A stretch of 64,000 nt of DNA from an uncultured Gammaproteobacteria bacterium (GTDB lineage: Bacteria; Pseudomonadota; Gammaproteobacteria; CAMYKB01). Every line of letters starts with the position of its first letter. The stretch's first letter is position 1. The stretch is taken from NCBI GenBank assembly GCA_947258875.1, contig CAMYKB010000003.1, forward strand, positions 12,358 to 76,357, written 5' to 3'. The translations under genes and the position numbers were made by a program. Of this stretch, positions 10,247 through 34,577 are shown in pieces. The notes below the pieces were generated by a model, which was not told the DNA's origin, searched no databases, and saw only the letters and a list, made by a program, of their open reading frames with translations.

Positions 10247-11599
10247 ATGTACCAGGTTTATATCTCGTCGACTTATACAGATCTGCAGGATTTCCGTGCT
10301 ATCGCGGCCAAGGCTGTGCGTCATCTGCAGTGCCGCGCGGTCGCGATGGAGGACTACCTGGCCAGCGATGAGCGCCCGCTCGACCGCTGTCTGTCGGATG
10401 TGCGCGCCAGTAATGTGTATGTCGGTTTGTTCGCCCGGCGCTATGGCTTCACACCGCCCGGCCATGACAAGAGCGTCACCCACCTGGAATATGAGGAAGC
10501 CGGCCGGGCTGGTATACCGCGCCTGATATTTATCCTCGATGAGGCGGTGGACTGGCCGGATTCAAACTGTGATCCAGATCCTTCAGCGATCCGGCAACTG
10601 CGCACAGCACTACAGGAAAAGCACCTCGTCAGTACCTTTCGCAGTGGCGATGAGCTTGATGCCCGCCTGACGGCTGCGCTGAGCCAGGAATTGCTGAAGC
10701 GCGGCGGCAGTGGCAAGGTCGAAATACCGGAATTATTGCCCTATATGAGTGACCGCAGCCGGCAGCGTGACCAGTTGGCCGATGCGCTGGATGTCCACCT
10801 CGACAAGCGGCCACGGCGGCCCTTTGTCGCGATCGTCTATGGCGATGAACGCGAGGCGCACAGCGCCTTCCTGGAACGGCTGGAGCGGGTGACGTTCCCC
10901 GATCTGCTCGGGCTGAGTGCGGAAGCAGGGCCGGTGCATCATCTCGATCTGCGCTGGAGCGAACCTGGAGGTTCCCTGGACGAACGCGAACGACGCCTGC
11001 AGTGCCGTCTTTCCGAAAGCCTGACCGGCGAGCGCCGCGCGGATACACAGACCATGGCACAGGAACTTGCCCGGCACCGCTGCGCGGTGATGATTTCCAC
11101 CTCGATTCTGAGTGCCGACTGGCAGGCGGACGAGGCGAAACTCGTGCAACACTGGCTCAAGCTGTGGAAGGCCTGGCCGGACCTGCCACCTGGTCAGAGG
11201 TTGGTCATTGTATTGAGTTTTCATCTTAAGGACTGTTCGCAGGCCTCGTTCTGGGCGCATCGCAAACTCATCAAGAAGAATCGATGCGTCTGCGAATTCG
11301 TGACCGAACTCGAGCGGCTTGCCGGTGACGATCTATCGCTTGTAAGCCTCGACAGGCTGGAAGCTATACGCGAGTCTGATGTGCTGAACTGGCTGGAAGA
11401 GCATGCCGGGAAGTTCTGCCGTGAATCCCGTGGTGCGATCCGTGACCCACTGGTGCTCGCAGAACAGCTCAAGCCCTGGCTGCGCGAATTTTTTCGCAAG
11501 GAGGGTGTAGCGGACGAATCGGGTGGTATTCATATGGAGGAGCTGGCGCGTGAACTGCGGCGCCAGCTGCACCGCTGTTTAAACGAAGGAGGAATCTGA
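10247..11599 (+). CDS. DUF4062 (TIR-like) domain protein with C-terminal degenerate P-loop/STAND-like region
   Basis: N-terminal MYQVYISSTYTDLQDFRAIAAKAV...NVYVGLFARRYG is the DUF4062 signature. GGGAGCGG RBS before the ATG at 10247. Segment PFVAIVYGDEREAHSAFLERL looks like an NTPase strand-1/P-loop position lacking GK[ST]. Stop is 3 nt before the next gene. Confidence 0.7.
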   Translation: MYQVYISSTYTDLQDFRAIAAKAVRHLQCRAVAMEDYLASDERPLDRCLSDVRASNVYVGLFARRYGFTPPGHDKSVTHLEYEEAGRAGIPRLIFILDEAVDWPDSNCDPDPSAIRQLRTALQEKHLVSTFRSGDELDARLTAALSQELLKRGGSGKVEIPELLPYMSDRSRQRDQLADALDVHLDKRPRRPFVAIVYGDEREAHSAFLERLERVTFPDLLGLSAEAGPVHHLDLRWSEPGGSLDERERRLQCRLSESLTGERRADTQTMAQELARHRCAVMISTSILSADWQADEAKLVQHWLKLWKAWPDLPPGQRLVIVLSFHLKDCSQASFWAHRKLIKKNRCVCEFVTELERLAGDDLSLVSLDRLEAIRESDVLNWLEEHAGKFCRESRGAIRDPLVLAEQLKPWLREFFRKEGVADESGGIHMEELARELRRQLHRCLNEGGI

Positions 11600-11602
11600 C
11601 CC

Positions 11603-12598
11603 ATGGCAAACGCCAACTGGTATCAAGGCACGGGAGCACAAAGCACAACGGCGGTCGACCTGCCGGCATCGCTACTGGATCGGCACGCCAATCCGGCAGG
11701 CTATTTGGCTGATCCCGGTCTCGTAGACGCGGTCAACGTCGCGCTGCATCTTGGTCAACCCCTGCTGTTGACCGGGCAACCAGGTACCGGCAAGACCCAG
11801 CTCGCCAACAGCCTCGCCTGGGAACTCGGCTACGAGCCGTTGCTCAAGTTCGAGGCCAAGTCGACCAGCGTTGCGCGCGATCTGTTCTACACCTACGACA
11901 CCCTGGGCCGCTTCCACGCCGTGCATACCGGCCAGGGCGCTGCCGATAGCCTCGACTATATCCGCTTCAACGCCCTGGGGCTGGCGATCCTGCGCGCCAA
12001 CGATCCCGCCGACGTGGCCCAGCTGCTGGCCGATAATACGCAACATACCGGGCAGCAGCGCTCGGTGGTGTTGATCGATGAAATCGACAAGGCGCCGCGC
12101 GATTTCCCCAACGATCTATTGAACGAAGTGGAGGGCATGTATTTCAGGATCCCCGAGCTCGGCAATGCGACCGTGACCTCGGCGCCTGAGTTGCGGCCGA
12201 TCCTGGTGCTGACCAGTAATTCGGAAAAGAACCTGTCCGAAGCCTTTCTGCGGCGCTGCGTCTTCTACGACATCCCCTTTCCTGATCGCAAGCGTCTCAC
12301 CCACATTGTGCACTCGCGGCTGGGCGAGGCGATTACGGGGCAGGGGGCGCTGCTGGAGGATGCACTCAACCTGTTCGAACGCCTGCGCGATCCGGCCAGT
12401 GGCCTTCATAAGAAACCTTCGACGGGCGAATTGCTTGCCTGGCTGCAGGTACTTGTCACGCATTCGCAAGACAACGATGACTACATCCGCACTGCAGCCA
12501 TGGTCGAGCCGGCGCTTGCTGCGTTGATCAAGACCACCGAAGACCGGCCGAAAGCGCGCGAACTGCTCAAGGACTGGTTGAAAACGAAACCGGCGTGA
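11603..12598 (+). CDS. MoxR-family AAA+ ATPase
   Basis: Walker A LLTGQPGTGKTQLA. Walker B VVLIDEIDKA. Sensor/Arg finger region LVLTSNSEKNLSEAFLRRC. Stop codon overlaps the GTG start of the next gene (GTGA). Confidence 0.9.
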   Translation: MANANWYQGTGAQSTTAVDLPASLLDRHANPAGYLADPGLVDAVNVALHLGQPLLLTGQPGTGKTQLANSLAWELGYEPLLKFEAKSTSVARDLFYTYDTLGRFHAVHTGQGAADSLDYIRFNALGLAILRANDPADVAQLLADNTQHTGQQRSVVLIDEIDKAPRDFPNDLLNEVEGMYFRIPELGNATVTSAPELRPILVLTSNSEKNLSEAFLRRCVFYDIPFPDRKRLTHIVHSRLGEAITGQGALLEDALNLFERLRDPASGLHKKPSTGELLAWLQVLVTHSQDNDDYIRTAAMVEPALAALIKTTEDRPKARELLKDWLKTKPA

Positions 12599-15500
12599 GC
12601 ACGACCTCCGGCAACACGTCGATTGATCCCTCTGTCGAACCGGGAGACGCGGTAACGCTTGATGGCGACAACCTGCTTTCCCTGCTCGATAGCCTGCGAC
12701 ATGACGGGTTTCCCATCGGCGTTAAGGAATATATCACCGCACAGGAAGTCGCCATCGCCTGCAGTGATGATTATGGCATCGACCCAACGCGGCTACGCAA
12801 CTGGCTGGCGCCGGTCCTGTGCACTAACCCCGACGAACAGAGATTGTTTTACCAGCGCTTCGCCGACTGGTGGGTGCAGCGGCAACCGGTAACCGCTATA
12901 CACACGGTTGAACCAGCGCCGGTAAAAACCGAGCTTGACGAAGATGTACAACGCGCACGTCCCTGGAAGTGGGTGGCACTTGCGGTCGGGTTGATTGCAG
13001 TAGCAGTGCTTGTTCCGCCGCTGCTGAAGCAGCCCGAAAATATTACACCGCCGCCAGTCGTGTCGGGGACCGAACCATCGCAGCCAGTGCGTCCCGACCC
13101 GTCTGTTTCGGTTGAGCAGGAGCCGGTTGGGCCGCAATTGCTCGTCACGGGTGAGGTTAGGGATATTGATGGACGGGTGATTGACGGCGCGACGGTGGTA
13201 GCGGTGAAGGAGTTGAAAGGACATGATGACCATGTTTGGTCTATAAACTTCAGCCCGGATGACACACGCGTGGTTACGGCGTCAAGAGATAAAACAGCGC
13301 GCATCTGGGAGGCAGTCAGCGGGCGCGAGCTTGCACGATTGGCGCATGATAAGTGGATCCAGTCGGCCGTTTTCGGTCCGAATGGCAGGCGCGTGCTCAC
13401 GGCGTCACTAGACGGCACAGCGCGTATCTGGGATGCTGTCAGCGGGCGCGAGCTTGCACGATTGGTGCATGATGGTTGGGTCAGTTCAGCCGTTTTCGGT
13501 CCGAATGGCAGGCGCGTGCTCACGGCGTCACTAGACGGTACTGCACGCATCTGGGACGCGGATAGCGGGCGCGAGCTGAGGCGATTGCCGGGTACGGAAG
13601 GGATCCTTTCCGCTGTGTTTAGCCCGGATGGCAAGCTAATTGCCACAAACGGCGTTGGCGCGAAGCTCCTGCACTGGGCCGGTAGCGACTCCACCGGCAA
13701 CTTCGATCTCACCTCCAACCTGATCGGCGGCACCCGGCTCCGGGTTTCCCACCCTGACTATCAGGATGCCTCATTGCACGATATACCCGATGGTTTCGGC
13801 AAGTTAACTGTCGAGGCCAGCCTGGCGCCACGCCCGGCACAGTGGCTGGAGGTATTTATACGCAATCGTGAGCTGACCCGTGTCACGCTCACTCTGCTGC
13901 CATTGCTGGTTGTTACCGCCTGGTGGTTGTGGCGGCGCAAACGTCGGCAGCTGATCCTGGAGCGGCGCACGGTACGCAACGTTGACGCGCTTGCAGGTGT
14001 TGCGATGCCCGAGCCGCAGCACAACCTGTATCGCGACGAGTCCTTTGTGCGCGCACGCATCGAGGCGCGGCGGCACCAGGCAGGCGGGCAAGGCGATCTC
14101 GATGCTGATGCCACTGTCGACGAAACGGTGCGGCAGCTCGGCTGGTTCTCGCCGGTTTACAAGACGCGTCTGCGCCTGCCGGCCTATCTGGCGTTGATCG
14201 ACCGCAGCGGCTTCCGCGATCAGCAGGCACATCTGATCGACGAATTCCTCGACTGTCTGGAAGAAGGTGGCGTGACGGTCGACCGTTATTACTTCGATCG
14301 CGATCCACGCATGTGTGTCACAGCAGTGAGTGGCGACAGCACCCGGCGCGCGGTGCGTGAACTCGCCGGCCGTTATCCGCAGCATCGCCTGTTGCTGTTT
14401 AGCGATGGCAGTGGACTGCTTGATCCCGTGACCGGCCGGCCTGCAACCTGGACAGAACTGTTTTCCGCCTGGCGCGAACGTGCGCTGATGACACCGGTGC
14501 CGGCCTTTCACTGGTCATCACGCGAGGTCGAGCTGGCGCGGTTGGGTTGTAGCGTGTTACCCGCGACACCTGAGGGTCTGTTGGCCTTTGTCGAACAGCT
14601 GGATGTGCCGGACAGTATTGTGCTGCCGCCAACGACGCACTGGCGTGCGCCATTCCCCGAAATCATCGCGGCGCATCCGGCGCGTTGGTTGCAACGCAAT
14701 GAACCGCAGCCGGAGGACAGTGACGAACTGCTGCGTCAGCTGCGGCGTTATCTGGGTGACGACAGTTACCGCTGGCTGTGTGCGCTGGCTGTTTATCCCG
14801 AACTCGACTGGTACCTGACGCTGTATCTTGGTTTGCATCTGCAGCGTGAGAATGGCACGCCGGTACTCGACGAAACGGCGCTCCTGAGTCTGGTGCGTCT
14901 GCCCTGGCTGCGACGCGGCAACATGCCTGACTGGTTGCGCCTGCGTCTCATGGCCGAACTGTCCAGCGATGATGAAAACACCGTGCGCGGGTTTTTGCGC
15001 GAACTGTTGCGCGCCCGACTGGAGGCGCCCGGTAGTCGCTTCCGCCTGGATATCGCGCATCCATCCGACAACATGCAGCGGCGCGGCTGGACCCGGTTCT
15101 TTTCCGATCTGCTGCGTACCGAGCCTGATGATAGTCCGCTGCAGGATCGCGTATTCGTCAATTTTCTGCTCGGCAAGCGTCCGCAGCGCTTGCAGGTGCT
15201 GGCGCCGCGCAACTGGCATCGCTGGGTTTATGAACGGGGTTTGAGTGCATTGGGTTTGCGTGAACGCACAGGGTTGTTGCTGGCGGCCAGCACATCTGTG
15301 CTGCTGGCGGTCAGCGCCTTTTCGCTGATTGATCTTGCCAAGGCAATACAGGCGGGCGGTAACGACTCGCAGATTGTCCAGCGCGACTGGCAACCGGCGG
15401 ACGAGCAGGCTCCACCACAGATTAAAGATGTTTTCGTGGAGAAATTTGGTGGTGGCTCTGGTATTCGCTATTCAGTACGCGATCTCAAGCTCAACGGTGA

Positions 15501-16653
15501 GGGTAACAACATTCGCCTGGCACAGGGCGGTCAGGTGAAAGCGACTCTGGAAATCAATCACGACTGTCGCGAATGCGGCGGCGCCATCAATCAGATCATC
15601 GTTGGCCTGGCCGGTGAAGACAGGGCGCAGGCCTGCGTCTGGAACGGTGGGCAGTCCAGTCGCGGCTGGCAAACGGTATCGTTCACACTCAGGATTCCGC
15701 AAGCACCGGGGAGCTACGAGGTGCGTACCCGCTACGCCCAGGCCTACAACTGTAAAGATGCAATCGGCTGGTGGAAGATAGACCGTTCCCAGGGACCAGG
15801 CGAGCAATCGACCATCGGCGTGGTGGTCGTTGAAGCTGTCTCGCAGCAAAACGATACCCGGCAGACGACAGCTAAACAACAGCCCAAGGCATCGGACGTC
15901 GTTGCAACGTTGAACGAAAAATGGCTCGCGAACGTCCTGCCTTTCTATAAAAAGGCTATCGAGGGACGTTATCCTTTCGATCTGAAAAGTGAGAAGAGCG
16001 TGACCTTGAAAGATTTCGGCATGTTCTTCGGTGAAGGCGGAATTGTGCAGCGCTTCACTGAACAAGAGCTGGCGCCCTACCTGGATACCTCGGGTGGTCA
16101 ATGGCGTTGGCGTGCTGAAGCGCAGGGTTTTTCAAGCGCATCATTAGTCGAGCTTCAACGCGCGAACCGCATCCGCGCAGCGTTCTTCCAGGACGGCGGG
16201 GAAATACCGTTGCTGCGGTTCAGCCTTAAACCCAGTCAACTCGACAAGAAGGCTGTTCGCTTCACGCTGGAGATTGACGGGCAACGCCTTCAATATGCGC
16301 ATGGCCCGAAACGTACCACAGACATAACATGGCCGGGCAACACCAGGCTCAAGCGCGCACTGTACACGTTTGAAGGTCTGGATGGTAAAAGCGCGAGCGT
16401 TAAGGAGGAGGGTGCGTGGGCATGGTTGAAGATTCTGGACCAGGCCAAGATTAGTGCAACGAGGGGCCAGGATGTTTCGCGTGTAACCTTCAGTAAGAAT
16501 AGTCTTTCCGCTAGCTTCGATCTGCAGACAAGCAAAGGAATAAACCCTTTCGACCAAGACTTGCGGAAATTCCATTGTCCGCAGCGTTTAAGTTCAGGTG
16601 GCAGCAGTGAACTGTCTCCGCCTCAGCCACCAACAATTATCAGATCGAAATAA
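12595..16653 (+). CDS. Large multi-domain membrane protein: TM – WD40 repeats – TM – vWA-like – TM – IcmF/TssM C-terminal-like domain
   Basis: 1352 aa. TM helices at aa ~123-143, ~428-446 and ~893-912. Four WD40 blades, aa ~205-360 (GH...TASRDKTARIWEA, TASLDGTARIWDA x2). vWA-like strands LALIDRSGF and LLLFSDGSG. C-terminal ~230 aa contain GAWAWLKILDQAKI, IDGQRLQYAHGP...ITWPG and NPFDQDLRKFHCPQRL, patterns I recognise from the TssM/IcmF periplasmic C-terminal domain. Translationally coupled to the MoxR gene. Confidence 0.8.
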   Translation: MSTTSGNTSIDPSVEPGDAVTLDGDNLLSLLDSLRHDGFPIGVKEYITAQEVAIACSDDYGIDPTRLRNWLAPVLCTNPDEQRLFYQRFADWWVQRQPVTAIHTVEPAPVKTELDEDVQRARPWKWVALAVGLIAVAVLVPPLLKQPENITPPPVVSGTEPSQPVRPDPSVSVEQEPVGPQLLVTGEVRDIDGRVIDGATVVAVKELKGHDDHVWSINFSPDDTRVVTASRDKTARIWEAVSGRELARLAHDKWIQSAVFGPNGRRVLTASLDGTARIWDAVSGRELARLVHDGWVSSAVFGPNGRRVLTASLDGTARIWDADSGRELRRLPGTEGILSAVFSPDGKLIATNGVGAKLLHWAGSDSTGNFDLTSNLIGGTRLRVSHPDYQDASLHDIPDGFGKLTVEASLAPRPAQWLEVFIRNRELTRVTLTLLPLLVVTAWWLWRRKRRQLILERRTVRNVDALAGVAMPEPQHNLYRDESFVRARIEARRHQAGGQGDLDADATVDETVRQLGWFSPVYKTRLRLPAYLALIDRSGFRDQQAHLIDEFLDCLEEGGVTVDRYYFDRDPRMCVTAVSGDSTRRAVRELAGRYPQHRLLLFSDGSGLLDPVTGRPATWTELFSAWRERALMTPVPAFHWSSREVELARLGCSVLPATPEGLLAFVEQLDVPDSIVLPPTTHWRAPFPEIIAAHPARWLQRNEPQPEDSDELLRQLRRYLGDDSYRWLCALAVYPELDWYLTLYLGLHLQRENGTPVLDETALLSLVRLPWLRRGNMPDWLRLRLMAELSSDDENTVRGFLRELLRARLEAPGSRFRLDIAHPSDNMQRRGWTRFFSDLLRTEPDDSPLQDRVFVNFLLGKRPQRLQVLAPRNWHRWVYERGLSALGLRERTGLLLAASTSVLLAVSAFSLIDLAKAIQAGGNDSQIVQRDWQPADEQAPPQIKDVFVEKFGGGSGIRYSVRDLKLNGEGNNIRLAQGGQVKATLEINHDCRECGGAINQIIVGLAGEDRAQACVWNGGQSSRGWQTVSFTLRIPQAPGSYEVRTRYAQAYNCKDAIGWWKIDRSQGPGEQSTIGVVVVEAVSQQNDTRQTTAKQQPKASDVVATLNEKWLANVLPFYKKAIEGRYPFDLKSEKSVTLKDFGMFFGEGGIVQRFTEQELAPYLDTSGGQWRWRAEAQGFSSASLVELQRANRIRAAFFQDGGEIPLLRFSLKPSQLDKKAVRFTLEIDGQRLQYAHGPKRTTDITWPGNTRLKRALYTFEGLDGKSASVKEEGAWAWLKILDQAKISATRGQDVSRVTFSKNSLSASFDLQTSKGINPFDQDLRKFHCPQRLSSGGSSELSPPQPPTIIRSK
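13313..13560. repeat. Near-identical tandem ~123 bp nucleotide repeats encoding WD40 blades
   Basis: gtcagcgggcgcgagcttgcacgattgg(c/t)gcatgat...gccgttttcggtccgaatggcaggcgcgtgctcacggcgtcactagacgg occurs twice almost perfectly (13313-13435, 13436-13558), with a diverged third copy following. Confidence 0.85.
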
Positions 16654-16794: not shown

Positions 16795-17397
16795 CTAGGG
16801 CGCAAAGGACAGTGTGGAAAGTGCGCCCTGAATAATGTCTTTCGCCCGCGCATACTCATTGAAAAGGAATACTGAATAGGCATCCGCCTGTTCGTTTTTG
16901 TGGATCCCGATCAGTAGCGCCTGGCTGTAGCTAGCGGAAAATTGCGGGTCGACATCAAATACCGCTGCCGCGGCCCAGTTCGCGTTAAACAGCTCACGCG
17001 CCTGCGACTGCTGATATTCCGTATTCGGTGTATTTCCGCCATTCGACATCTGCGCGGTCAACGATTCAAACAGCAATGGAAAAAGATGGTTGGGTTCGGG
17101 CGCCGCATTGTGGGGGTCATTGTAATCAATAGAGATTCGCGCTAGTGGACGGATCACGAACCGTATCTCGAGTTCACCCGAGACATGTTTCAATGCACGT
17201 TCATAGTGAAGTACTGGATTGGCCGCGGGTTCAATGTCGGTAAAATCCGGGGGCGGCTCAAATCGCAGGCCGGATTCCTTAAGCAACTGTTCGAATAGTG
17301 CCTGGGAAGATTCCGCAGAACTTGAGGCGGTTGTCGTCAGCGCAGGCGCGACTAGCAGCAACACCAACAGCCACTGTCTTGATGGCACACCTGTCAT
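16795..17397 (-). CDS. Hypothetical secreted protein
   Basis: 200 aa with signal peptide. 4 bp overlap with the upstream TPR gene, giving an operon with the multihaem cytochrome. Confidence 0.5.
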   Translation of the reverse strand: MTGVPSRQWLLVLLLVAPALTTTASSSAESSQALFEQLLKESGLRFEPPPDFTDIEPAANPVLHYERALKHVSGELEIRFVIRPLARISIDYNDPHNAAPEPNHLFPLLFESLTAQMSNGGNTPNTEYQQSQARELFNANWAAAAVFDVDPQFSASYSQALLIGIHKNEQADAYSVFLFNEYARAKDIIQGALSTLSFAP

Positions 17398-18155
17398 GAA
17401 AGATCTGCTTTATTTGCCGGTACATCCTCTGCTTGCCATCGCTGTAATAGTGCTTTGGCGGCATCCTTCCATTCTTCAGAAGGCGCTATCTCCAGAAAAC
17501 GCTTGAGGTCGGCGATGGCCAGTGCCCGGTTGCCCATTACATCATGCACTGAAGCACGGTTGAAATATGGTGCTGCAGAGTGTGGATCCGCCGCAACACA
17601 GGCATCAAAGTCCTCCAGCGCCTGCGGGTATCTGCCTGCGTTAAAGGCAAGCGAACCGCGGTTGAAACGCGCAGCGATAAACCCGCTGTCTGTTTCGATG
17701 GCTTTATCGAGGTCTGCCATCGCCTCATCAATGCGGCCGAAATTGCGGTAGGCCTGGGCGCGATTGGTGAGAAACATCGGGTTGTGCGCATCCAGCTCCA
17801 GCGCTCTGTTAAGGTCGGCCAGTGCCGCCGAACTACGTCCCTGTTCCAGTAACAGGCTGCCGCGCACGCCATGCAAGTTTGCGTTATCCGGATACATTTC
17901 TACGGCCTGGTTGAGGCTATCTATGGCTTGCGTCGCACGGCCCTCAGCCAGGTGCTGCAGGGCGACCTGAACATGCTTGTCCGGCGTCAGGCTGGCGTGA
18001 GGATCATAGCTGCTGTGCGGGCGCACACGCGGGGCATCGGTCCCGGTATTAGGGATTTGCTGAACGATGGCTTCAGACTCGACTTGTGCGTCAGCAGTCG
18101 ACTTACCGGGGCCGCTGTCACAAGCAGACAGGCTTATGGTGACGAGCGTCGCCAT
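17394..18155 (-). CDS. TPR-repeat lipoprotein
   Basis: Lipobox LVTISLSACDSG. Multiple TPR motifs (AxxxYxxGxxxEA pattern repeated). Start chosen at MATLV (ATG 18155) to avoid overlap with the cytochrome gene. Confidence 0.6.
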   Translation of the reverse strand: MATLVTISLSACDSGPGKSTADAQVESEAIVQQIPNTGTDAPRVRPHSSYDPHASLTPDKHVQVALQHLAEGRATQAIDSLNQAVEMYPDNANLHGVRGSLLLEQGRSSAALADLNRALELDAHNPMFLTNRAQAYRNFGRIDEAMADLDKAIETDSGFIAARFNRGSLAFNAGRYPQALEDFDACVAADPHSAAPYFNRASVHDVMGNRALAIADLKRFLEIAPSEEWKDAAKALLQRWQAEDVPANKADLS

Positions 18156-18223
18156 AAGCCTTGCCTGAATCACTATCGAGCGCCTGGCAGCAGAGTGTTT
18201 TCTCAAAAATAGTCTCACCCTGC

Positions 18224-20605
18224 TTATTTGGTCTCGCTGTAGGCCTTGAGCAATTTGTTCATTAGCTCGATGTGCTGCGCGTCGTTCAGCTGACCTTTGG
18301 TGGACACTTTTGCCCACAACTCTGCATTGGTCATTTCACGATGGCAGCCCATGCACAATCCGGTACGATCCATGGCGTCACGCATCTCTTTGGGTAATGC
18401 GCGCGATAACGGCCAGTGTGTGCCGACTGTCTGAACCTGTTGGTCATCCTTGATAATCGTCGACCAGTCAAAATCCAGGGCCTCAATCTTGGGAATCTGG
18501 ATCTGGTAGTTCCTGGGGATGACTTTACCGGTCTTCTGATCAATCAGGTCTTCAACGATATCCACCGGATAACGCGTCTGGAATACACCACCGGAAATAC
18601 CGTACCCCATTGCCTTCGGATTGTTATGGCAGGACTCGCAGGTACGGGCCTTGCGCTGTGCCGAATGCGGTTGCACCGGTGCCATATCAAGTGCCAACGG
18701 AGTACGCTCCTGTCCCAGCTCTTTCTGCTCGTCGTACGATAAAGCTATCTGGTCGAGAGCAACGGTTCTGCCGTCACGCGCTTTAACGGTGTAAACGATC
18801 TGGCAGCCCGGCATTAATGGGGTAACACGGCCCTCACCGTTGATACCCAGTACCGGTTCTTCCCAACGCAGGTAAGCACGAGTTTCATACACCTTACCAG
18901 GACTCTGAATACCTTTTACGCCTAGCGGTGACTCAGCGGTTGAACCGTCCGGGTTGCGTTGACTGCCGGATGCAATCCAGTCGGTATCATGTTTAGGTTT
19001 ACCATCTTTGTCTTTGCCGTAGTCAACCTGTACATGGCAGCCATAACATTGTGGCACCCATGATGCGTGGCAGGCATAACATTCCAGGCTTTCGGCATGT
19101 TTTTGGACCCGGCTCATGGCCACCATGGCATCCGGACTCTTCCACGCGTTGTCGATCTGCAGCTGTTTAAGCAACGGAACTTCAAAGTCATTGCCGGTTG
19201 CCGAATGCAACATGGCCTTCTTGCCATCCTTGACAACGTTGCCGAATGGATTGCCACGGGCGGTCTTCAGATAACCATCCTTCTTGTCGTACAGCGTGGC
19301 GAAGGCTGCGGTTTCCGGCAGTGGGCTCGTGGCCAGACCACGCGCTTTGCCGGTCAGTGGTTGGTCAAATTCCTCGCCATGTCCCAGCGGTAATTCCCAG
19401 GGGAATTGCTCTGGCGTGCCATGGCAGTCCTGGCATTCAATTTCCACCTGTGCCAGCGTGGTGCCCGGAATATTGCCATCACCATGCATGTCGATCGATG
19501 TATGACAATCCTGGCATAGCAGGCCACCTTCGGGATTCCCCGGGCGGCTCTTGATCTGGTGATGCAGATCATCAGAGATAAACAGGTACTGCTTGGTGTG
19601 CAGTTTTGGCTGTTTTTCGCCTTTCTCGTTGAACGGCGAACCGTAAGGGAACTCCATCAATCCCTGATACGTCACGCCGATACGCTTGCCGCGATTGTGG
19701 CAGGAGTTGCAGGTCTCGACGGGGATACCCGAATACTCAATACCACCATGAGTCACTTTGGACTTGCGAGTAGACTGTATCTGGTGGGTCAGCATGTGGC
19801 CCTTTTCTGTCTTGTCGATGGTCGGGTCATTACCTTCGTAGATGCCTTCATTGCCATAGGCTATGTGGCAGGCTGAACACCCCTGACCGCGGTAATCACC
19901 GCGTTTTTCACGGCCCTTGACTGTAACGTGGCAGCGTTGGCATTGCTGGCGCTGGTAGGTAAAGCCAGCAAGCTTCGGGTTTTTCTCGATGTCTTCGACC
20001 GATGGGTTGGGTATTTGCGACAATTCAGTGGGGAACTGTTCCTTGTGCGCGGCTATCATGTCCTTCATGTAGGCCTTGTAGTCATCGGTACCCACAGCAG
20101 GTACAGGTCCGTCACCGTCCTTGATATCATAATTACCCCAGGGAACCTTATGATTCTGCACCTCTTCGATGCCCCAGGTGTGCAGGTTGCCCTGAATCTT
20201 ACCGGCTTCGGTATTCATTAAGGATTTTTCCAGACGTTCAGAATAGCCCAGGTGGCAGGCGCTCTGACCACAGGTAAATTTGTTGACATCCATCGCCCCG
20301 GGATCTGGGTAAAACGTTTGCGGGCCGTTGGCTTGCTTTAGTGTCGCCGGTGAGCCGCTGTGAGCCGCTTTTGCCTCGCTTGCGCCTGGGTTGCCGCCAT
20401 GGCACATGACGCAACCTTGGCTATCCCCGTGCGATGAACCCAACGCCTTGATCATTGCCATCATGGCGCTGCCTTCCTGGCGTATCTGTTCGAGGCCGTT
20501 GTGACAACTCATGCAGCCTTCGCCGGCTCCGATCTTGGCATCTGCAGTGAACGTGATAAATAGCGTAACGAGGAATAAAGCTAGTGCCCTTGCGGTCGTT
20601 CCCAT
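18224..20605 (-). CDS. Multihaem c-type cytochrome (~12 haem-binding motifs), secreted
   Basis: 793 aa with signal peptide and GAGAGGG RBS. 11 CXXCH motifs (CMSCH, CVMCH, CQRCH, CSACH, CNSCH, CQDCH x2, CYACH, CYGCH, CESCH, CMGCH) plus one CX4CH (CGQSACH). Confidence 0.85.
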   Translation of the reverse strand: MGTTARALALFLVTLFITFTADAKIGAGEGCMSCHNGLEQIRQEGSAMMAMIKALGSSHGDSQGCVMCHGGNPGASEAKAAHSGSPATLKQANGPQTFYPDPGAMDVNKFTCGQSACHLGYSERLEKSLMNTEAGKIQGNLHTWGIEEVQNHKVPWGNYDIKDGDGPVPAVGTDDYKAYMKDMIAAHKEQFPTELSQIPNPSVEDIEKNPKLAGFTYQRQQCQRCHVTVKGREKRGDYRGQGCSACHIAYGNEGIYEGNDPTIDKTEKGHMLTHQIQSTRKSKVTHGGIEYSGIPVETCNSCHNRGKRIGVTYQGLMEFPYGSPFNEKGEKQPKLHTKQYLFISDDLHHQIKSRPGNPEGGLLCQDCHTSIDMHGDGNIPGTTLAQVEIECQDCHGTPEQFPWELPLGHGEEFDQPLTGKARGLATSPLPETAAFATLYDKKDGYLKTARGNPFGNVVKDGKKAMLHSATGNDFEVPLLKQLQIDNAWKSPDAMVAMSRVQKHAESLECYACHASWVPQCYGCHVQVDYGKDKDGKPKHDTDWIASGSQRNPDGSTAESPLGVKGIQSPGKVYETRAYLRWEEPVLGINGEGRVTPLMPGCQIVYTVKARDGRTVALDQIALSYDEQKELGQERTPLALDMAPVQPHSAQRKARTCESCHNNPKAMGYGISGGVFQTRYPVDIVEDLIDQKTGKVIPRNYQIQIPKIEALDFDWSTIIKDDQQVQTVGTHWPLSRALPKEMRDAMDRTGLCMGCHREMTNAELWAKVSTKGQLNDAQHIELMNKLLKAYSETK

Positions 20606-21013
20606 GGCGCCCTCTCTTGGTATTGTGTTTTTTTTATATATGCAGTGCTTATATTCGCCACTTAATGCGGCATTGCGACTTGCAATGAGTATAGACGAGA
20701 TTACTATAGAAAGTCGTAGTAATTGTGAGATCGATCAGTTGAAGGATTGGGGTATTGATTGAACAGCCGTCTGCTGCGGCGCCGGGTATGACTTAAGTCT
20801 GTTGTATCAACGCGTTTTTCCAGGATGGGAGCGCACATATAAAATGACAGTATGTGCCGTGGTTTGGTTACGAAAATCCGTTGCAGTCACTTCGAGGGGC
20901 GTGAGTTCTGCAGCACCTGGGATAGTGTGTATTCAGCAGCTCTTACTTATCTGTACACGAACGAGCCTTGTTGGCTCACACTACCCGTCATACCTGATAT
21001 GAACGACTACCCC

Positions 21014-22558
21014 TTATTCCACTAACGCGGCCTGGATCACGCCGACGCGAATGCTGTTAAGCACGGCCTTATCTTTCGCCGGGCCCAACCCTGTAGGAAC
21101 CACTACGGCCTTGCCCGCGGCGAGGCTGCGAATATCGCGGGTGATCTGGCGGCGCTTTCCCTGTGCATCCGGGTATTGTACGGCGACCTTAACATTGCGC
21201 ACTGCATAGGATGTCGGGTTTTGTACCTGCACCACCACATAGCCGTTCTGATTGAGACCAACCCGGGTCTTAATGTAATTACCCGGGTTTTGCGGCAGAT
21301 CCAGTCGCAGCAGTGATTGCGAGGCCTGCTTGCCGGGTTCGGAGTTGGAACCCGCTGCTGCCTTGTAATATTTCAGGGCGCTGGCACGATCACCGGCGGC
21401 CAATGTCAGGTTGCCGAGTGAATTCAGCGCGGTCGCGGTGGGCAACAATTTAACACTTTGCTCGAGATCGCTGCGTGCACCGCTGCGATCACCAAGACGC
21501 TCGCGTGTGAGGCCGCGCTGTACGTAGTAATGAAAAAACTGATTGTTATACTGCAACGCCTTGTTGTAGTCGGCGAGTGCTGATTTGAGGTTGTTTTGCT
21601 GAAACTTTGCGTCGCCGAACAACGAATGAAATTGTGCCTCTCGCGGTTCCATACGAATGGCTTTTTGTGCCAGAGTCATCGCCTTACGGGTATCGCCCTT
21701 GGCCAGGGCTTTGCGGCCCTCGTCGTGGGCCTTGTAGGCTTCGCGGCTGCGTTTGATGTGCGCTATCTTGCTTTGATAGCGCTGTGTGCCCAGTTCTCCA
21801 CCTGATGGCAGGCTTTTCGCGTGTTCGATGTTGTTATCGACACGTTCCTGTGACGGCGGGTGGCTGGCAAACAGGCCGGATAACCAATCTGACCGCCGGC
21901 CTTCGGACAGGCGTACGAAGGTTTCTTGTAGGCTGATGGCGGCACGCGGATCGTAACCGGCTTTGGACATGTAGTTCATGCCATAAAAATCGGATTCGCG
22001 TTCCGCGTCACGGCCGTATTTTTGATTAAGCAGGCCCGCCGCAAGTTGCGCGCCACCGACAGCGAGATTGGCGTAATCGCTATCGCGTGCGGCAATGCCG
22101 GTTGCCATGATGGCGCCTTGCAGCAGCATGCCGCGTTCCATACCTTTGGCGCCATGACGTGCGGCGGCATGTACCACTTCGTGACCCAGTACCGCGGCAA
22201 CTTCAGCTTCGTTATTGAGTTCCACCAGCAGTCCACGGTTGACGGCGATTTTGCCGCCGGGCAGCGCCCATGCGTTAGGTGTGGAGTTGTTGAGTACCAC
22301 GAATTCATAGGGTAATTGCCGGTCACTGACGGCGGCCAGGCGGTTGCCGATACTCTGCACATAACGCGTCAGTTCCTGATCGACGTTGTATTGGCCACCC
22401 TGCATCTGCTGGCTCACCAAGTAGTTCTGTTTGCCCAGCTGGATTTCCTGGGCTTCAGACACCAATGTGAGTTCGCGTTCTCCCGTTACAGGATTAACGG
22501 CACAGCCCTGTAACGCAACCGCCGCAAGTATGAATGCATAAAGGATGTTTCGCATCAT
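21014..22558 (-). CDS. BepA/YfgC-like M48 metallopeptidase with C-terminal TPR domain, lipoprotein
   Basis: Lipobox ALQGCAV. HEXXH motif LGHEVVHAAARH. TPR-like C-terminal half. Start at MMRNILY (22558), preceded by GGGGA. Confidence 0.8.
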   Translation of the reverse strand: MMRNILYAFILAAVALQGCAVNPVTGERELTLVSEAQEIQLGKQNYLVSQQMQGGQYNVDQELTRYVQSIGNRLAAVSDRQLPYEFVVLNNSTPNAWALPGGKIAVNRGLLVELNNEAEVAAVLGHEVVHAAARHGAKGMERGMLLQGAIMATGIAARDSDYANLAVGGAQLAAGLLNQKYGRDAERESDFYGMNYMSKAGYDPRAAISLQETFVRLSEGRRSDWLSGLFASHPPSQERVDNNIEHAKSLPSGGELGTQRYQSKIAHIKRSREAYKAHDEGRKALAKGDTRKAMTLAQKAIRMEPREAQFHSLFGDAKFQQNNLKSALADYNKALQYNNQFFHYYVQRGLTRERLGDRSGARSDLEQSVKLLPTATALNSLGNLTLAAGDRASALKYYKAAAGSNSEPGKQASQSLLRLDLPQNPGNYIKTRVGLNQNGYVVVQVQNPTSYAVRNVKVAVQYPDAQGKRRQITRDIRSLAAGKAVVVPTGLGPAKDKAVLNSIRVGVIQAALVE

Positions 22559-22829
22559 GTAGATCGTCCCCGGTGGGTTTGGGTAAGTGCACAGGCAATA
22601 TTGCCTGGAACCTATCTCAAAGTTTGTCTCACACGCCAATTCAGTGCTGCGGTCCGCGCCTTTATGTCATCAGGTATTGTTATGACGCGCGATCCACGAG
22701 TTGAGATAGATTCTGGTAGTTAATTTATACGGACTCTAGCATGTGTTTGTGCCTCCGGTGCCTGGTGAGCGCCGGGATCAGCGGGGATTTCACAAAACGT
22801 TACAAAATAGAGACCGGGCAGGGCAGTGA

Positions 22830-23321
22830 CTACAGACCGATATTGACGCCAATGCCAAAGTGGACTTTGGGTTTGTCATATTCATGTGTTTCGTTGGACC
22901 ACAGATGCATGTCTTCGGCATTCACGACCGGATAGTTGTAATCAGCCTGGCCAACCTTGCCGGGGCGTGTTTCTGTAATGGTGCCCGCCACGGTAATGCG
23001 CTTGCCATTATGGAGGTCCATGGTCTCGAGGTAACCGTCCTGTGACACCATGAACCGCCCCGTTGGCGTGGAACGCAGTTTGGGTTGTTGCTTGCGGTCG
23101 AGTGGATAACCCAGTACTTCCACCAAGGTGCTGTTTTCCAGGTTGGTGCTACTGATGATCGTGCCACCCCATAACACGCGTTGTCCGGTGGTGCTTTGTG
23201 TAGATGCGCGTGCGGGAGTTAGACTGCTGTCGATGTTGGCTGTTTCGAAACGCGGTGTACTGGCACAGGCCGAAAGCAAACCTATGTACAATGCTATAAT
23301 CACAAAGCGGCTGATAATCAT
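22830..23321 (-). CDS. Slp family outer-membrane lipoprotein
   Basis: Lipobox LLSACAS. Slp hallmark QRVLWGGTIISSTN...GRFMV...YNYPVV. Confidence 0.7.
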   Translation of the reverse strand: MIISRFVIIALYIGLLSACASTPRFETANIDSSLTPARASTQSTTGQRVLWGGTIISSTNLENSTLVEVLGYPLDRKQQPKLRSTPTGRFMVSQDGYLETMDLHNGKRITVAGTITETRPGKVGQADYNYPVVNAEDMHLWSNETHEYDKPKVHFGIGVNIGL

Positions 23322-23329
23322 TATGGTAC

Positions 23330-23875
23330 TCACCAATAGTAGGGATGACGGCGGTAATATGGCCAGTAGAATGGGTCGTAATAGTATGGACGATACCAGG
23401 GATCATACCAGAATGGGTCGTAGTAGCGCGCGGGTTGCTCGACGTGTTTTTCCCATAAGTAATGACTGGTGACTGAAACCAGAGGGAAGTTATAGGCGTG
23501 TTCACCAATCTTGCCCTGTTCAGCACCGGTCAGGGTGCCTGATACGGTCATTTCGCGTCCCTTGGCATAGATGGCAGGATCGAGAAAACCATCCACCTGT
23601 GCAAGGAAACGGCCAGGGCTGCTGTCCTGTTCCAGTGGGCGGCCTGATCTGCCCAGATCACGCGCCACGATTTCCACCACGCTGTCCTGTTGACGGTTAG
23701 TCACTGACACAATGGTGCCACCCCAACGTACCTGGCTGCCGGTGAACTGTTGTGGATTGCTACGGACTTCGGCCACGCTCGGGGTATTGGTTCTGGCGCT
23801 GATCTCTTGTGGGACATTACTGGCGCAGGCCGTCAATAACAATCCTGCAATTAGCAGTGATAACAGCTGTTTCAT
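23330..23875 (-). CDS. Slp family outer-membrane lipoprotein with aromatic/Pro-rich C-terminal tail
   Basis: Lipobox LLTACAS. Hallmark SQVRWGGTIVSVTN...GRFLAQ...YNFPLV. Tail YYDPFWYDPWYRPYYYDPFYWPYYRRHPYYW. Confidence 0.7.
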   Translation of the reverse strand: MKQLLSLLIAGLLLTACASNVPQEISARTNTPSVAEVRSNPQQFTGSQVRWGGTIVSVTNRQQDSVVEIVARDLGRSGRPLEQDSSPGRFLAQVDGFLDPAIYAKGREMTVSGTLTGAEQGKIGEHAYNFPLVSVTSHYLWEKHVEQPARYYDPFWYDPWYRPYYYDPFYWPYYRRHPYYW

Positions 23876-23988
23876 GGTTTCCACCCTACCTTGATAGAGG
23901 TCTATGTTTGATAAGACAGGCCTATCGAAAAGGAGTTCTATAACCCAATAAGTCTACTTGGCCTGGCTGAACGCAAGCTTAACCTGCA

Positions 23989-26900
23989 TCAACTGGGTTC
24001 ACTACGGAGTTTGGACTGTTTGATGACCAGGTAGACTGCGGGTATCACCACCAGCGTCAGCAGGGTAGCGCTGATCATACCGCCCACCATGGGGGCGGCG
24101 ATGCGGCGCATGACCTCTGAACCGGTGCCGCTGCCCAGCATAATAGGTAACAGGCCGGCGATGATTGCGGAGACAGTCATCATGATGGGTCGCACTCGCA
24201 GCAAGGCACCTTCAGTAATGGCTTCGCGTAATTCATCGAGTGTTATTCGGTGGGCGCGTTCGCCGTGATGTGTCATGCGATTATAGGCCTGGTTGAGATA
24301 CACCAGCATGATGACGCCGATTTCTACAGCGACGCCGGCCAGGGCGATGAAGCCGACGCCAACGGCAACAGATATATTATAGTCCAGTAAGTAGAGCAGC
24401 CAGAATCCACCCACCAGCGCCATCGGCAAGGTACCCATTATAATGAGCACTTCCGTGAGGTTGCGGAAATTCAGGTACAGCAACAGCATGATGATCAGTA
24501 TCGTAACGGGCACCACCAGCGTGAGGCGCTCTTTGGCACGCACCATGTATTCGTACTGGCCGGACCAGTTAATTGAATAACCGGCGGGTAATTCGACATT
24601 GTCGGCCACGACCTGGCGCGCTTCTTTTACATAAGAACCCACGTCGCGGTCCTTGATGTCGACAAAGGTCCAGCCGTTGGGGCGTGCGTTTTCGCTCTTG
24701 ATCATGGCTGGGCCATCCTCGACGCGAATATCGGCGACTTCGCCCAGCGGAATGCGGGCGCCACCCGGCGTTACCACCGGCAGGTTGCGTAACTTGGTGA
24801 CCGAATCACGGATGTCGCGAGGATAACGCACATTGATCGGGTAACGTTCCAGGCCTTCCACGCTCATGGCGACATTCATGCCACCGACTGCGGTACGCAC
24901 CACGTCATGCACGTCACTGATGTTAAGACCATGGCGTGAGGCGGCAATACGATCGATATCAGCAACAATATAACGGCCACCGGCGACACGTTCGGAGAAT
25001 GCTGACGCAGTGCCAGGCACCTGGCTAACAACCTTTTCAAGATCCTGGCCGATTTCCTGAATAACACCCAAATCCGGCCCGGCCACCTTGATGCCGACAG
25101 GCGTCTTAATGCCGGTCGCCAGCATATCGATGCGCGTCTTGATCGGCATCACCCAGGCGTTGGTTAGGCCGGGGTATCTCACCATTTCATTCAGTTCTTG
25201 CCTGATTTTTTCAGGTGTAATACCGGGGCGCCATTGATCGCGGGGTTTGAAGATAATGGTGGTTTCGATCATGGTTAGCGGCGCCGGGTCAGTGGCGGTT
25301 TCGGCGCGGCCGATCTTGCCGAAGACGCGTTCCACTTCGGGGTGCGAGCGTATTATTTTATCGGTTTGTTGCAGCAACTCCTGTGCCTTGCCAATGGAGA
25401 CACCCGGGAAGGTGGTCGGCATGTACATCAGGTCGCCTTCATCCAGGTCAGGCATGAATTCGGAACCGAGTTGCGTGACCGGCCATAAACCCACCGCCAT
25501 GATGATGATGGAAGCGAGTAAAACGGTTTTAGGTATCCTTAGTATGATGTTAATAAACGGCCGGTAGACCGCAATCAAAATCCGGTTGATCGGATTTTTA
25601 TGCTCGGGCGTGATATGGCCGCGGATGAAGTAACCCATCAAGACCGGTACCAGGGTAATTGACAAGCCAGCGGCGGCGGCCATGGCATAGGTCTTGGTGA
25701 AGGCCAGCGGCGCAAACAAGCGGCCTTCCTGTGCTTCCAGCGTGAACACCGGCAGGAAGCTCAACGTAATAATGAGTAACGAGAAGAATAACGGCGGGCC
25801 GACTTCCAGAGTCGCTTCGCGGACAATGCGCCAGCGGTTTTCATCGGTTAGCGGTTCACGTTCGATATGCTTGTGCACGTTCTCGATCATCACGATGGCG
25901 GCATCGACCATGGCGCCGATGGCGATGGCGATACCACCCAGCGACATGATGTTGGCATTAATGCCCTGGTTGTACATGACCACGAAGGCAATAAGGATGC
26001 CGATGGGTAAACTGACAATGGCGACAAAGGCTGAACGCAGGTGAAACAGGAATACCACACACACCAGTGCCACTACAATGAACTCTTCTACCAGTTTACC
26101 CTGCAGTGTGCTGACGGCACGTTTGATCAGCGATGAGCGATCATAGGTGGTGACGATCTCGACACCGTCCGGCAAGCCGTTTTGTAATTCCTCAAGTTTT
26201 TGTTTAACGCCTTCGATGGTCTTCAGCGCATTCTCGCCGTAGCGCATGATGATGATGCCGCCGACCACTTCGCCTTCGCCATCGAGTTCGGCAATGCCGC
26301 GGCGCATCTGTGGCCCGAGGCGGATATCGGCCACGTCCTTCAATAGGATAGGCGTGCCTTGTGCGTTCACACCCAGCGGAATACGCCGCAGGTCATCCAG
26401 CTCATTGATGTAACCGGTGGCGCGCACCATGTATTCGGCCTCGGCCATTTCAATTACCGAGCCACCGACTTCCTGGTTGGCCATCTTGATGGCCATACGG
26501 ATCTTGGCGAGCGGTAAGCCATAGGCGCGCAAGCGGTCAGGATTGAGTACCACCTGGTATTGCTTGACCATGCCGCCAACCGTGGCGACCTCAGACACGC
26601 CGGCTACGGTTTGCAATTCATACTTAAGAAACCAGTCCTGCAAGGAACGCAGTTGCGACAAATCCTGTGTGCCCTTGCGGTCGACGAGTGCGTATTCGTA
26701 GACCCAGCCGACACCGGTCGCATCCGGACCCAATGCCGGACGTGCCTCTGCCGGCAAGCGCGTGGCGACCTGACTTAAATATTCCAATACCCGTGAGCGT
26801 GCCCAGTAAGGGTCAGTGCCGTCCTTGAAAATTACGTACACATACGAGTCATTGAAAAACGAGTAGCCGCGGACGTTCACTGCACCCGGTACCGATAACA

Positions 26901-27117
26901 TCGCCGTGGTGAGTGGGTAGGTGACTTGATCCTCCACCACGCGCGGCGCTTGACCGGGATAGGTGGTCTTGATGATAACCTGTACATCGGACAGGTCCGG
27001 GATCGCATCCAGCGGTGTGTTCTTGACCGAGTAAATACCCCAGCCGGTGAGCAATACCGTGAGCAGGATCACCAGGAAGCGATTGTTGAGTGACCAATCA
27101 ATAATGCGTGCAATCAT
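23989..27117 (-). CDS. cusA: Heavy-metal efflux RND transporter CusA (HME-RND)
   Basis: 1042 aa with 12-TM RND topology. N-terminus MIARIIDWSLNNRFLVILLTVLL and conserved HME-RND motifs. Operon with an MFP and an OMF. Confidence 0.9.
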   Translation of the reverse strand: MIARIIDWSLNNRFLVILLTVLLTGWGIYSVKNTPLDAIPDLSDVQVIIKTTYPGQAPRVVEDQVTYPLTTAMLSVPGAVNVRGYSFFNDSYVYVIFKDGTDPYWARSRVLEYLSQVATRLPAEARPALGPDATGVGWVYEYALVDRKGTQDLSQLRSLQDWFLKYELQTVAGVSEVATVGGMVKQYQVVLNPDRLRAYGLPLAKIRMAIKMANQEVGGSVIEMAEAEYMVRATGYINELDDLRRIPLGVNAQGTPILLKDVADIRLGPQMRRGIAELDGEGEVVGGIIIMRYGENALKTIEGVKQKLEELQNGLPDGVEIVTTYDRSSLIKRAVSTLQGKLVEEFIVVALVCVVFLFHLRSAFVAIVSLPIGILIAFVVMYNQGINANIMSLGGIAIAIGAMVDAAIVMIENVHKHIEREPLTDENRWRIVREATLEVGPPLFFSLLIITLSFLPVFTLEAQEGRLFAPLAFTKTYAMAAAAGLSITLVPVLMGYFIRGHITPEHKNPINRILIAVYRPFINIILRIPKTVLLASIIIMAVGLWPVTQLGSEFMPDLDEGDLMYMPTTFPGVSIGKAQELLQQTDKIIRSHPEVERVFGKIGRAETATDPAPLTMIETTIIFKPRDQWRPGITPEKIRQELNEMVRYPGLTNAWVMPIKTRIDMLATGIKTPVGIKVAGPDLGVIQEIGQDLEKVVSQVPGTASAFSERVAGGRYIVADIDRIAASRHGLNISDVHDVVRTAVGGMNVAMSVEGLERYPINVRYPRDIRDSVTKLRNLPVVTPGGARIPLGEVADIRVEDGPAMIKSENARPNGWTFVDIKDRDVGSYVKEARQVVADNVELPAGYSINWSGQYEYMVRAKERLTLVVPVTILIIMLLLYLNFRNLTEVLIIMGTLPMALVGGFWLLYLLDYNISVAVGVGFIALAGVAVEIGVIMLVYLNQAYNRMTHHGERAHRITLDELREAITEGALLRVRPIMMTVSAIIAGLLPIMLGSGTGSEVMRRIAAPMVGGMISATLLTLVVIPAVYLVIKQSKLRSEPS

Positions 27118-27126
27118 GACGGCCCC

Positions 27127-29966: not shown

Positions 29967-30080
29967 TGTACTAACTCCAACGCAGCTGCAGGTTGCGCAC
30001 TTAGCTGTGTATGATGCAGCGCATCTTCCGTAAACAAAAGAAAATAAGACCAACGCGGTTAGCGTAGGCTAACAGTGAGT

Positions 30081-34563: not shown

Positions 34564-34577
34564 GTTATTGCCCCCAC

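Follow-up and report, generated by a model that had tools for sequence, protein, structure and literature searches.

A predicted twelve-haem cytochrome of the ExtM superfamily and two partner proteins encoded by a widespread three-gene cassette

The window analysed here, a stretch of 64,000 nucleotides (64 kb) from a contig of an uncultured gammaproteobacterium (CAMYKB010000003.1), carries three adjacent genes on its reverse strand, which encode a large c-type cytochrome, a tetratricopeptide repeat (TPR) protein and a small secreted protein. Judged from their sequences, these genes form a self-contained operon in which a twelve-haem cytochrome is encoded together with two dedicated periplasmic partners. 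Within the ExtM superfamily of twelve-haem proteins, which is uncharacterised, the cytochrome represents a branch that is both divergent and enlarged. More tentatively, and with confidence that stays somewhat short of even, the products can be read as a periplasmic redox module that is induced at low oxygen in many lineages, the cytochrome probably being an enzyme with a reactive site at haem 10 and an extra cysteine, Cys601.

The cytochrome gene (18224-20605, reverse strand) is intact. It starts with ATG and contains no frameshift, and its product of 793 amino acids aligns over the full length with homologues, at up to 88% identity. A motif scan finds eleven CXXCH haem sites, at residues 31, 65, 222, 243, 299, 364, 391, 509, 520, 656 and 751, and a single CX4CH site, CGQSACH, at residues 112-118; the same scan finds no CXXCK and no long-spacer motif. 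Eleven CXXCH sites in 793 residues is far above chance, and all twelve sites are kept in the family alignments. An earlier, sequence-only reading of this DNA had proposed an intact operon whose 793-residue cytochrome carries 11 CXXCH sites and one CX4CH site. The open reading frame and the motif count bear this out, and a check for a frameshift or a miscount leaves the number of haems as it was. Of the 25 cysteines, 24 lie within the twelve haem motifs and the remaining one is Cys601. The N-terminus (MGTTARALALFLVTLFITFTADA) is a Sec-type signal peptide covering residues 1-23 and ending in FTADA (20537-20605, reverse strand); no lipobox is present in it.

Among named families, ExtM alone shows significant homology to this protein over a full domain. 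The match to the NCBIfam model NF040943 scores 199.6 bits (E=7e-59), with residues 203-531 as its best stretch, and falls below the equivalog cut-off of 800 bits. The cytochrome is thus homologous to ExtM while lying outside the equivalog, and it has the twelve haems that characterise ExtM, as eleven CXXCH sites and one CX4CH site. An exhaustive search of representatives of clusters at 50% identity recovered 1253 clusters at E<=1e-3 and 210 at E<=1e-30. Several of these relatives, including the proteins labelled P0270 and P0278 (P denotes protein relatives and L denotes loci), span the ExtM profile from end to end. The placement in a divergent branch of the superfamily is based on the significant, sub-threshold match together with these full-length alignments.

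ExtM itself is GSU2935, a predicted 12-haem cytochrome without a defined role, encoded in the Geobacter extHIJKLMNOPQS cluster (PMC5877670). The window protein resembles it in having twelve predicted haems and no defined function, and the ExtM-like representatives that align to the profile retain haem 10 and the equivalent of Cys601. The two differ in length, the window cytochrome being about 200 amino acids longer, and in gene context. No genes for ExtN, the Rieske protein ExtO, the cytochrome b ExtP or MccSep/ExtKL flank the operon, and no genes of the ExtN, ExtO, ExtP or ExtKL type recur in the flanks of 80 related loci. Conversely, the two partners found here are not described for the ext cluster.

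A C-terminal transmembrane anchor occurs in many distant ExtM-like relatives (P0244, P0246, P0252, P0261-P0263, the archaeal-looking P0270, and P0281), and the core family lacks it. In locus L084 (10547-12811) the gene for P0244 overlaps a gene for an MMPL-family transporter by 4 bp. The neighbours of distant relatives, among them this transporter type, CcsBA, a GMC oxidoreductase and thioredoxin/DsbD, were considered as a lead and proved inconsistent.

Other families of multihaem cytochromes fit less well. The sequence-only reading had placed the protein outside the MtrA/MtoA and OmcA/MtrC types, and this separation holds, since the OmcA/MtrC model TIGR03507 gives 17.7 bits against a cut-off of 209.3. 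No sequence similarity to the haem core of NrfA, HAO, OTR or MccA was found, and the protein contains neither the CXXCK nor the long-spacer ligand motif. Searches of the PDB with the full protein, with a 22-sequence profile and with the segment 425-668 gave matches at the level of motifs or chance; those from the full protein and the profile had E values of 0.005 or weaker. UetJ from Candidatus (Ca.) Tenderia electrophaga, a marine gammaproteobacterium, has 11 CXXCH sites and was considered as a counterpart; its 18-gene uet context, with a 28-strand barrel, c7 trihaem proteins and NHL proteins, is absent here. A full-text literature search returned no description of the cytochrome family or of the three-gene cassette, and in every case the family proteins are named in their sources as 'hypothetical protein', 'cytochrome C' or by a domain label.

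The three genes were compared with the 80 best related loci out of at least 547 relative-encoding stretches, taken with one genome per species. A TPR gene follows the cytochrome gene in 75 of the 80 loci, and a gene for the third protein, of 200 amino acids, is found in 65. The genes that flank the operon in the window, for an M48 peptidase and a WD40/IcmF-like protein, are not conserved beside the cassette, and other clusters of flanking genes recur in at most 17 of the 80 loci each. Because the partners recur in most loci while the flanking genes differ, the three genes are taken to be a real unit, a chromosomal operon as predicted from sequence. The earlier proposal that cytochrome, TPR lipoprotein and secreted protein form an operon is thereby confirmed.

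Relatives of the cytochrome are encoded in at least 547 species-level genomes from several phyla, well-studied chemosynthetic symbionts among them. Its matches form more than 2500 protein clusters when grouped at 90% identity, and identities are 72% or higher for each of the best 120. Gammaproteobacterial hosts, which are uncultured, include Sedimenticola, Chromatiaceae, Ectothiorhodospiraceae, the Gamma3 symbiont of Olavius algarvensis, Ca. Thiosymbion and Ca. Ruthturnera. Other hosts belong to the Hyphomicrobiales (Alphaproteobacteria), Planctomycetota, Flavobacteriales, Poribacteria, Dadabacteria and Burkholderiales. In all, nearly identical cassettes are present in hundreds of marine-sediment bacteria and chemosynthetic symbionts.

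Within the cassette the three proteins have diverged to very different degrees. Measured against the window copy, the cytochrome has a median identity of 78% and either partner one of 46%. In the same loci the cytochrome ranges from 67% to 88% identity, and the minimum is 31% for one partner and 31% for the other. This pattern points to an old cassette in which the partners evolve several times faster than the cytochrome, and an identity of at least 67% for a twelve-haem protein across the sampled phyla is an unusually strong constraint. In one metagenome-assembled genome of the Ectothiorhodospiraceae (ES_Gamma_071) the complete cassette is present twice, as the paralogous loci L001 and L003. 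Both share about 85% identity with the window copy, and upstream of each stands a divergent Porin_5 gene.

A candidate for a reactive site can be found around Cys601 (18803-18805, reverse strand), the one cysteine that belongs to no haem motif. This residue sits in the most conserved stretch that is free of haem motifs, RWEEPxLGINGEGRVTPLMPGCQ. The cysteine is invariant in a 41-sequence alignment of the core family, and all full-length cytochrome reading frames of the 80 loci contain its motif. In the wider ExtM-type superfamily it co-varies with haem 10, whose site is CYGCH at residues 520-524 (19034-19048, reverse strand). Among 61 cluster representatives, Cys601 is present in 34 of the 44 that have haem 10 and in 2 of the 17 that lack it (Fisher p=4e-6, with no correction for phylogeny). 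This conserved lone cysteine, tied to one haem, is the first comparative handle on the superfamily. Another position of note is residue 374, which alternates between His and Met across relatives, as would be expected of an axial ligand.

Proteins in which a cysteine ligates a haem include TsdA, SoxAX, DsrJ and MccSep. The newly described MccSep is a polysulfide reductase, a selenoenzyme with a His/Cys haem, and in Geobacter its gene lies directly upstream of gsu2935 (extM) (PMC13510729). The likeness to these proteins consists of one conserved cysteine outside the motifs that is tied to one haem, of hosts that are largely sulfur oxidisers, and of this adjacency of the MccSep and ExtM genes. 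Sequence similarity to them is undetectable, however, and haem count and size are quite different; Cys ligation in the window cytochrome is a candidate suggested by sequence.

Evidence on the conditions under which the cassette is used can be drawn from the region upstream of it. Boxes of the FNR/CRP type (TTGA[TC]N4[AG]TCAA) were sought in 77 loci, in the 300 bp that precede the cytochrome gene. They occur there in 35 of the 77 (about 45%), mostly 70-145 bp before the ATG. The upstream sequence, 21.9 kb in total, holds 35 boxes and the other 1038 kb hold 14, which corresponds to a 118-fold enrichment upstream. A gene for a regulator of the Crp/FNR family stands in divergent orientation beside P0241, a relative that is 59% identical, and in 11 loci the cassette is closely followed by a gene for a bacteriohaemerythrin.

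Control by sigma-54 was also considered. In the window, TGGCGAATATAAGCA lies 55 bp upstream with a spacing that is one base short, and the motif with correct spacing is enriched only 1.5-fold upstream of the gene across the loci, so it was rejected as a general feature. Genes for regulators of the NtrC type flank about ten loci. Elsewhere in the window, positions 59796-59809 hold its only exact TTGATNNNNATCAA palindrome; matches with up to two mismatches number 52, against 30 expected from shuffled sequence.

In some lineages the cassette is linked to a porin. A gene for a Porin_5 protein (PF16930) of 356-455 amino acids, with the C-terminus RFRxDFNxKF, abuts the cassette in 12 of the 80 loci. 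These porin-linked loci span the Gammaproteobacteria, Planctomycetota, Poribacteria, Dadabacteria and Flavobacteriales, that is, at least five groups at phylum level. Beta-barrels of the MtrB type, which sheathe a cytochrome, have about 700 amino acids and 26 strands. By its predicted length the linked porin has the size of a channel for solutes and not that of a sheath for cytochromes, and with a porin of only 356-455 residues a soluble substrate is suggested rather than a mineral.

The porin also bears on the lifestyle that the sequence-only reading had suggested. That reading suggested periplasmic or extracellular electron transfer with metal or sulfur redox, and held that CX4CH sites usually need dedicated maturation or partner proteins. 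In a fuller form, the module would belong to an extracellular or metal-directed system of the porin-cytochrome type, and the CX4CH haem would need the adjacent proteins for its maturation. Several observations agree with this, and it is still highly improbable. Pfam recognises generic c3 and c7 modules in the cytochrome and, marginally, domain II/IV of MtrC/MtrF (PF22113; 31.9 bits against a cut-off of 30), in a pentahaem stretch at residues 219-398. Beta-rich segments are interleaved with haem segments as in MtrC, OmcA and MtrF. There is the porin gene linked in 12 loci, a cytochrome from the Flavobacteriales has a lipobox, and the archaeal-looking P0270 has a C-terminal anchor. On the other hand, the linked porin is far smaller than an MtrB-type sheath, the window cytochrome has twelve haems rather than ten and no lipobox, and the OmcA/MtrC family model does not recognise it. 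The window encodes no large beta-barrel sheath of a porin-cytochrome conduit, no linked porin, no genes of the MtrA/MtrB type and no outer-membrane cytochrome that could act as a partner. The proposed extracellular or metal-redox lifestyle therefore finds no support in this DNA. Its second part also fails at the haem site concerned, where CX4CH, CXXCH and CX5CH alternate and the partner genes accompany the first two.

The preferred reading, a periplasmic redox module, can be set out as follows. The module would be made in many lineages when oxygen is scarce, and the cytochrome would act as a periplasmic redox enzyme or as an enzyme-like terminal module. Most of its haems, with His/His ligation and one of His/Met type at residue 374, may serve as an electron wire that leads to soluble carriers in the periplasm. 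A special site would be made up of haem 10 and the invariant Cys601, with the cysteine as an axial ligand or else as a residue of the active site, by analogy with TsdA, SoxAX, DsrJ and MccSep. The substrate would be a small soluble inorganic compound of sulfur or nitrogen, and where a dedicated porin is present it may enter the periplasm through that porin. The TPR protein and the third protein, which resembles PsbP, would be non-catalytic subunits for docking or assembly or extrinsic subunits, and the CX4CH site would be an incidental spacer variant at haem site 3. Taken together, the constraint on the cytochrome, its two private partners, the frequent control of the FNR type and the occasional porin suggest an unrecognised respiratory reaction in oxygen-limited marine sediments.

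A more specific version can be stated, which must be counted as rather improbable in its full form. In this version the cassette would encode a new class of multihaem enzyme, with an eleven-haem wire feeding a haem 10 that is ligated or assisted by a cysteine. The enzyme would be capped by the PsbP-like and TPR subunits and induced by FNR at low oxygen. It would oxidise or reduce a small sulfur compound (thiosulfate, polysulfide or sulfite) or a nitrogen-oxide compound, taken up by a dedicated porin in those lineages that have one. If true, it would add a widespread and unrecognised respiratory step to marine-sediment bacteria and symbionts such as Thiosymbion, Olavius Gamma3 and Sedimenticola.

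Several points weigh against reading the cassette as a redox enzyme induced at low oxygen. In the window itself, the 408-bp region upstream of the cytochrome gene (20606-21013, reverse strand) contains no FNR-type box within two mismatches, and this copy of the cassette has neither a porin nor an adjacent regulator. The association of Cys601 with haem 10 ignores kinship among the 61 representatives, and strong conservation alone does not prove catalysis. The cassette encodes no quinol dehydrogenase or other defined electron partner. An AlphaFold2 (AF2) model of the cytochrome has a predicted local distance difference test (pLDDT) score of 52, too poor for a comparison of folds. The gene for the PsbP-like protein was not detected in the Flavobacteriales loci. 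Finally, the core family has 13 invariant histidines outside the motifs, enough to provide ligands for all twelve haems without the cysteine.

The last of these points also fits another explanation, in which the cytochrome is a non-catalytic periplasmic carrier or store of electrons. As a wire or 'capacitor' it would buffer or relay electrons when oxygen fluctuates, with complexes of the inner membrane on one side and reductases or oxidases of the periplasm on the other, and the TPR and PsbP-like proteins would dock or stabilise it. All twelve sites are ordinary motifs that contain histidine, and with the 13 extra histidines every haem could be bis-His. The modules that Pfam recognises, of the c3, c7 and MtrC types, are all electron-transfer modules, and none of the genes in the cassette recognisably encodes a catalytic cofactor protein. 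Control of the FNR type and sandy or sediment habitats also fit redox buffering. Electron carriers usually diverge fast, however, whereas this cytochrome keeps at least 67% identity across phyla while its partners fall to 31%. The small porin linked in 12 loci suggests a solute substrate, and a carrier role offers no explanation for a periplasmic cysteine that is invariant, unpaired and associated with one haem. On balance such a role is possible and is regarded as doubtful.

The unusual haem site that had drawn attention to the operon is haem 3 (CGQSACH; 20252-20272, reverse strand), a variant of CXXCH with an insertion of two residues. Among the 80 related loci the spacer at this site is CX4CH in 47, CXXCH in 24 and CX5CH in 2, the last being the two Flavobacteriales loci (CGQSAACH). 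More distant relatives in the superfamily have plain CXXCH there (CGQCH, CGKCH or CGMCH). The spacer is thus evolutionarily free to vary among CX2, CX4 and CX5 at one haem site, and it is no indication of special maturation. CX4CH sites are native to the cytochrome c3 of Desulfovibrio, and the ordinary Ccm system handles them.

The sequence-only reading had used the CX4CH site to account for the partner genes. Both partners are present alongside the CX4CH form and alongside the CXXCH form, and that explanation falls away. In the two CX5CH loci the TPR gene is kept, and a homologue of the 200-residue protein was not found. Because the same genes accompany plain CXXCH loci, the TPR protein and the 200-residue protein are not regarded as maturation factors for CX4CH. 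As far as the alignments indicate, CX4CH is a harmless, lineage-specific insertion at haem 3 that has no bearing on the partner genes.

The second gene of the operon encodes a TPR protein of 253 amino acids (17394-18155, reverse strand). Its reading frame, called mechanically, opens at a GTG at 18317 and would overlap the cytochrome gene, but the N-termini of homologues and a lipobox (MATLVTISLSAC/DSG) favour the ATG at 18155. This start leaves a gap of 68 bp to the cytochrome gene. The spacing given in the sequence-only reading, a 68-bp gap followed by a 4-bp overlap, is reproduced with this ATG and with the ATGA at which the third gene overlaps the TPR stop codon. The product matches Pfam TPR_1 (E=2e-25). 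In the window it has the lipobox LSAC (18120-18131) with Asp at +2 and is a lipoprotein in this lineage. A lipobox is found in only a subset of homologues (9 have Asp at +2), and most have a plain signal peptide; the lipid anchor is therefore not a feature of the family. Conserved histidines, H47, P52-H53 and H68, lie in an N-terminal extension.

One possible role for such a protein is in cytochrome assembly. TPR proteins that act as chaperones for apocytochromes, such as CcmI and NrfG, are an established precedent. The TPR protein, perhaps with the PsbP-like protein, could likewise be a dedicated maturation or assembly chaperone for the large apocytochrome, working with a haem lyase as NrfG, CcmI and SirG do, and not a stable subunit. 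This idea does not exclude the other readings, and taken by itself it is unlikely. It agrees with the TPR gene being the most constant partner of the cytochrome and with a periplasm-facing TPR protein being encoded beside a multihaem cytochrome, as for NrfG, CcmI and SirG. Cytochrome synthase genes also recur beside a few members of the family. CcmF-CcmH and CcmI are found with P0241, CcsBA follows P0246, and in the two Flavobacteriales loci the TPR gene has CcsBA on its downstream side, as the very next gene in L077.

Other observations speak against a chaperone. Among its Pfam and NCBIfam matches the window protein has none to the CcmI, NrfG or CycH models, and it shows no similarity to the CcmI-like protein of locus L090. 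For most loci the flanks that were retrieved showed no haem-lyase or synthase gene, and none is found among the genes annotated around the operon in the window. Every haem site is of the form C(Xn)CH and the spacer variant is uncorrelated with the partners, and chaperones are not known to carry a conserved N-terminal His motif of this kind. Of the earlier suggestion that the TPR protein is an assembly or docking factor, the role as a partner or in assembly remains plausible, whereas the connection to CX4CH maturation is lost.

Three loci illustrate how the surroundings of the cytochrome gene vary. Locus L077 (4953-14529), from the Flavobacteriales, contains, in this order, a divergent TlpA-like thioredoxin gene, Porin_5, the cytochrome, the TPR lipoprotein and a CcsBA of 1053 amino acids. 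Its cytochrome carries a lipobox and a CX5CH haem 3, and the locus has no PsbP-like gene. In L080, too, the cassette is preceded by the porin gene and has CcsBA on its downstream side. In locus L090 (4002-8700), an operon divergent to P0241 (Pelagibius-like) encodes the Crp/FNR regulator, a fused CcmF-CcmH of 805 amino acids and a CcmI-like TPR protein, a dedicated lyase set like NrfEFG. Here the TPR and PsbP-like partners are absent beside P0241.

The third gene (16795-17397, reverse strand) encodes the secreted protein of 200 amino acids, which has a hydrophobic, signal-like N-terminus. It belongs to no Pfam family, and 43 members gave no match to PsbP, DcrB or any other family even at E up to 5. 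A fold match to solved members of the PsbP/Mog1 group, with an alpha-beta-alpha sandwich, can nevertheless be made, at only 7-11% sequence identity to PsbP, PNSL1, MTC28, LpqN and DcrB. Unlike PsbP and DcrB, the protein has an invariant His/Glu-rich loop of its own, with the motif D-P-H-N-A-x-P-E-P-N-H. The PsbP/Mog1 fold is typical of extrinsic or adaptor subunits. A gene of 203 codons that follows P0262 was considered as a homologue and is unrelated on comparison.

The sequence-only reading had linked the twelve-haem cytochrome to other cytochromes in the window, which are a cytochrome c', a dihaem protein and two monohaem proteins of class I. This link is weak, as these proteins are generic and their genes are separated from the operon by some 10 kb or more that holds unrelated genes; no genes for such cytochromes are found among the recurrent flanking genes of related loci. 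Nor do the surrounding genes support a specific metal-respiring lifestyle.

A copper-homeostasis island occupies positions 23989-37147. It includes a CusA-like RND protein, CusB with a fused CusF domain and an OEP-family outer-membrane protein (23989-30053), a DUF411 protein (31183-31752) and a multicopper oxidase with a Tat signal (35804-37147). The oxidase is followed by a secreted protein of 400 amino acids (34578-35780), which has no Pfam or NCBIfam match, and by a His/Met-rich protein of 173 amino acids. Between the island and the operon, at 22830-23884 on the reverse strand, lie two tandem, overlapping paralogous genes for Slp-family outer-membrane lipoproteins of 168 and 184 amino acids.

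Three genes of the M48 peptidase family are found in the window, at 3423-5924 (forward strand) and 21014-22639 (reverse strand). The product of the one directly upstream of the operon has TPR repeats at its C-terminus and resembles BepA, with a score of 103 bits that falls short of the cut-off. On the other side of the operon, at 10223-16653 on the forward strand, three co-directional genes encode a DUF4062 and inactive-STAND protein (458 amino acids), an AAA ATPase (331 amino acids) and a protein of 1352 amino acids with WD40 repeats and a TssM/IcmF C-terminus. The last scores 225 bits with TIGR03348, below the cut-off, and no other type VI secretion genes are nearby; by its sequence the group looks like an unusual system of the STAND/NTPase type. 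Finally, positions 59344-59720 hold a T/G-rich array of imperfect tandem repeats with periods of 15, 30 and 63 bp, whose opposite strand would encode repeats rich in Lys, Ala and Arg.

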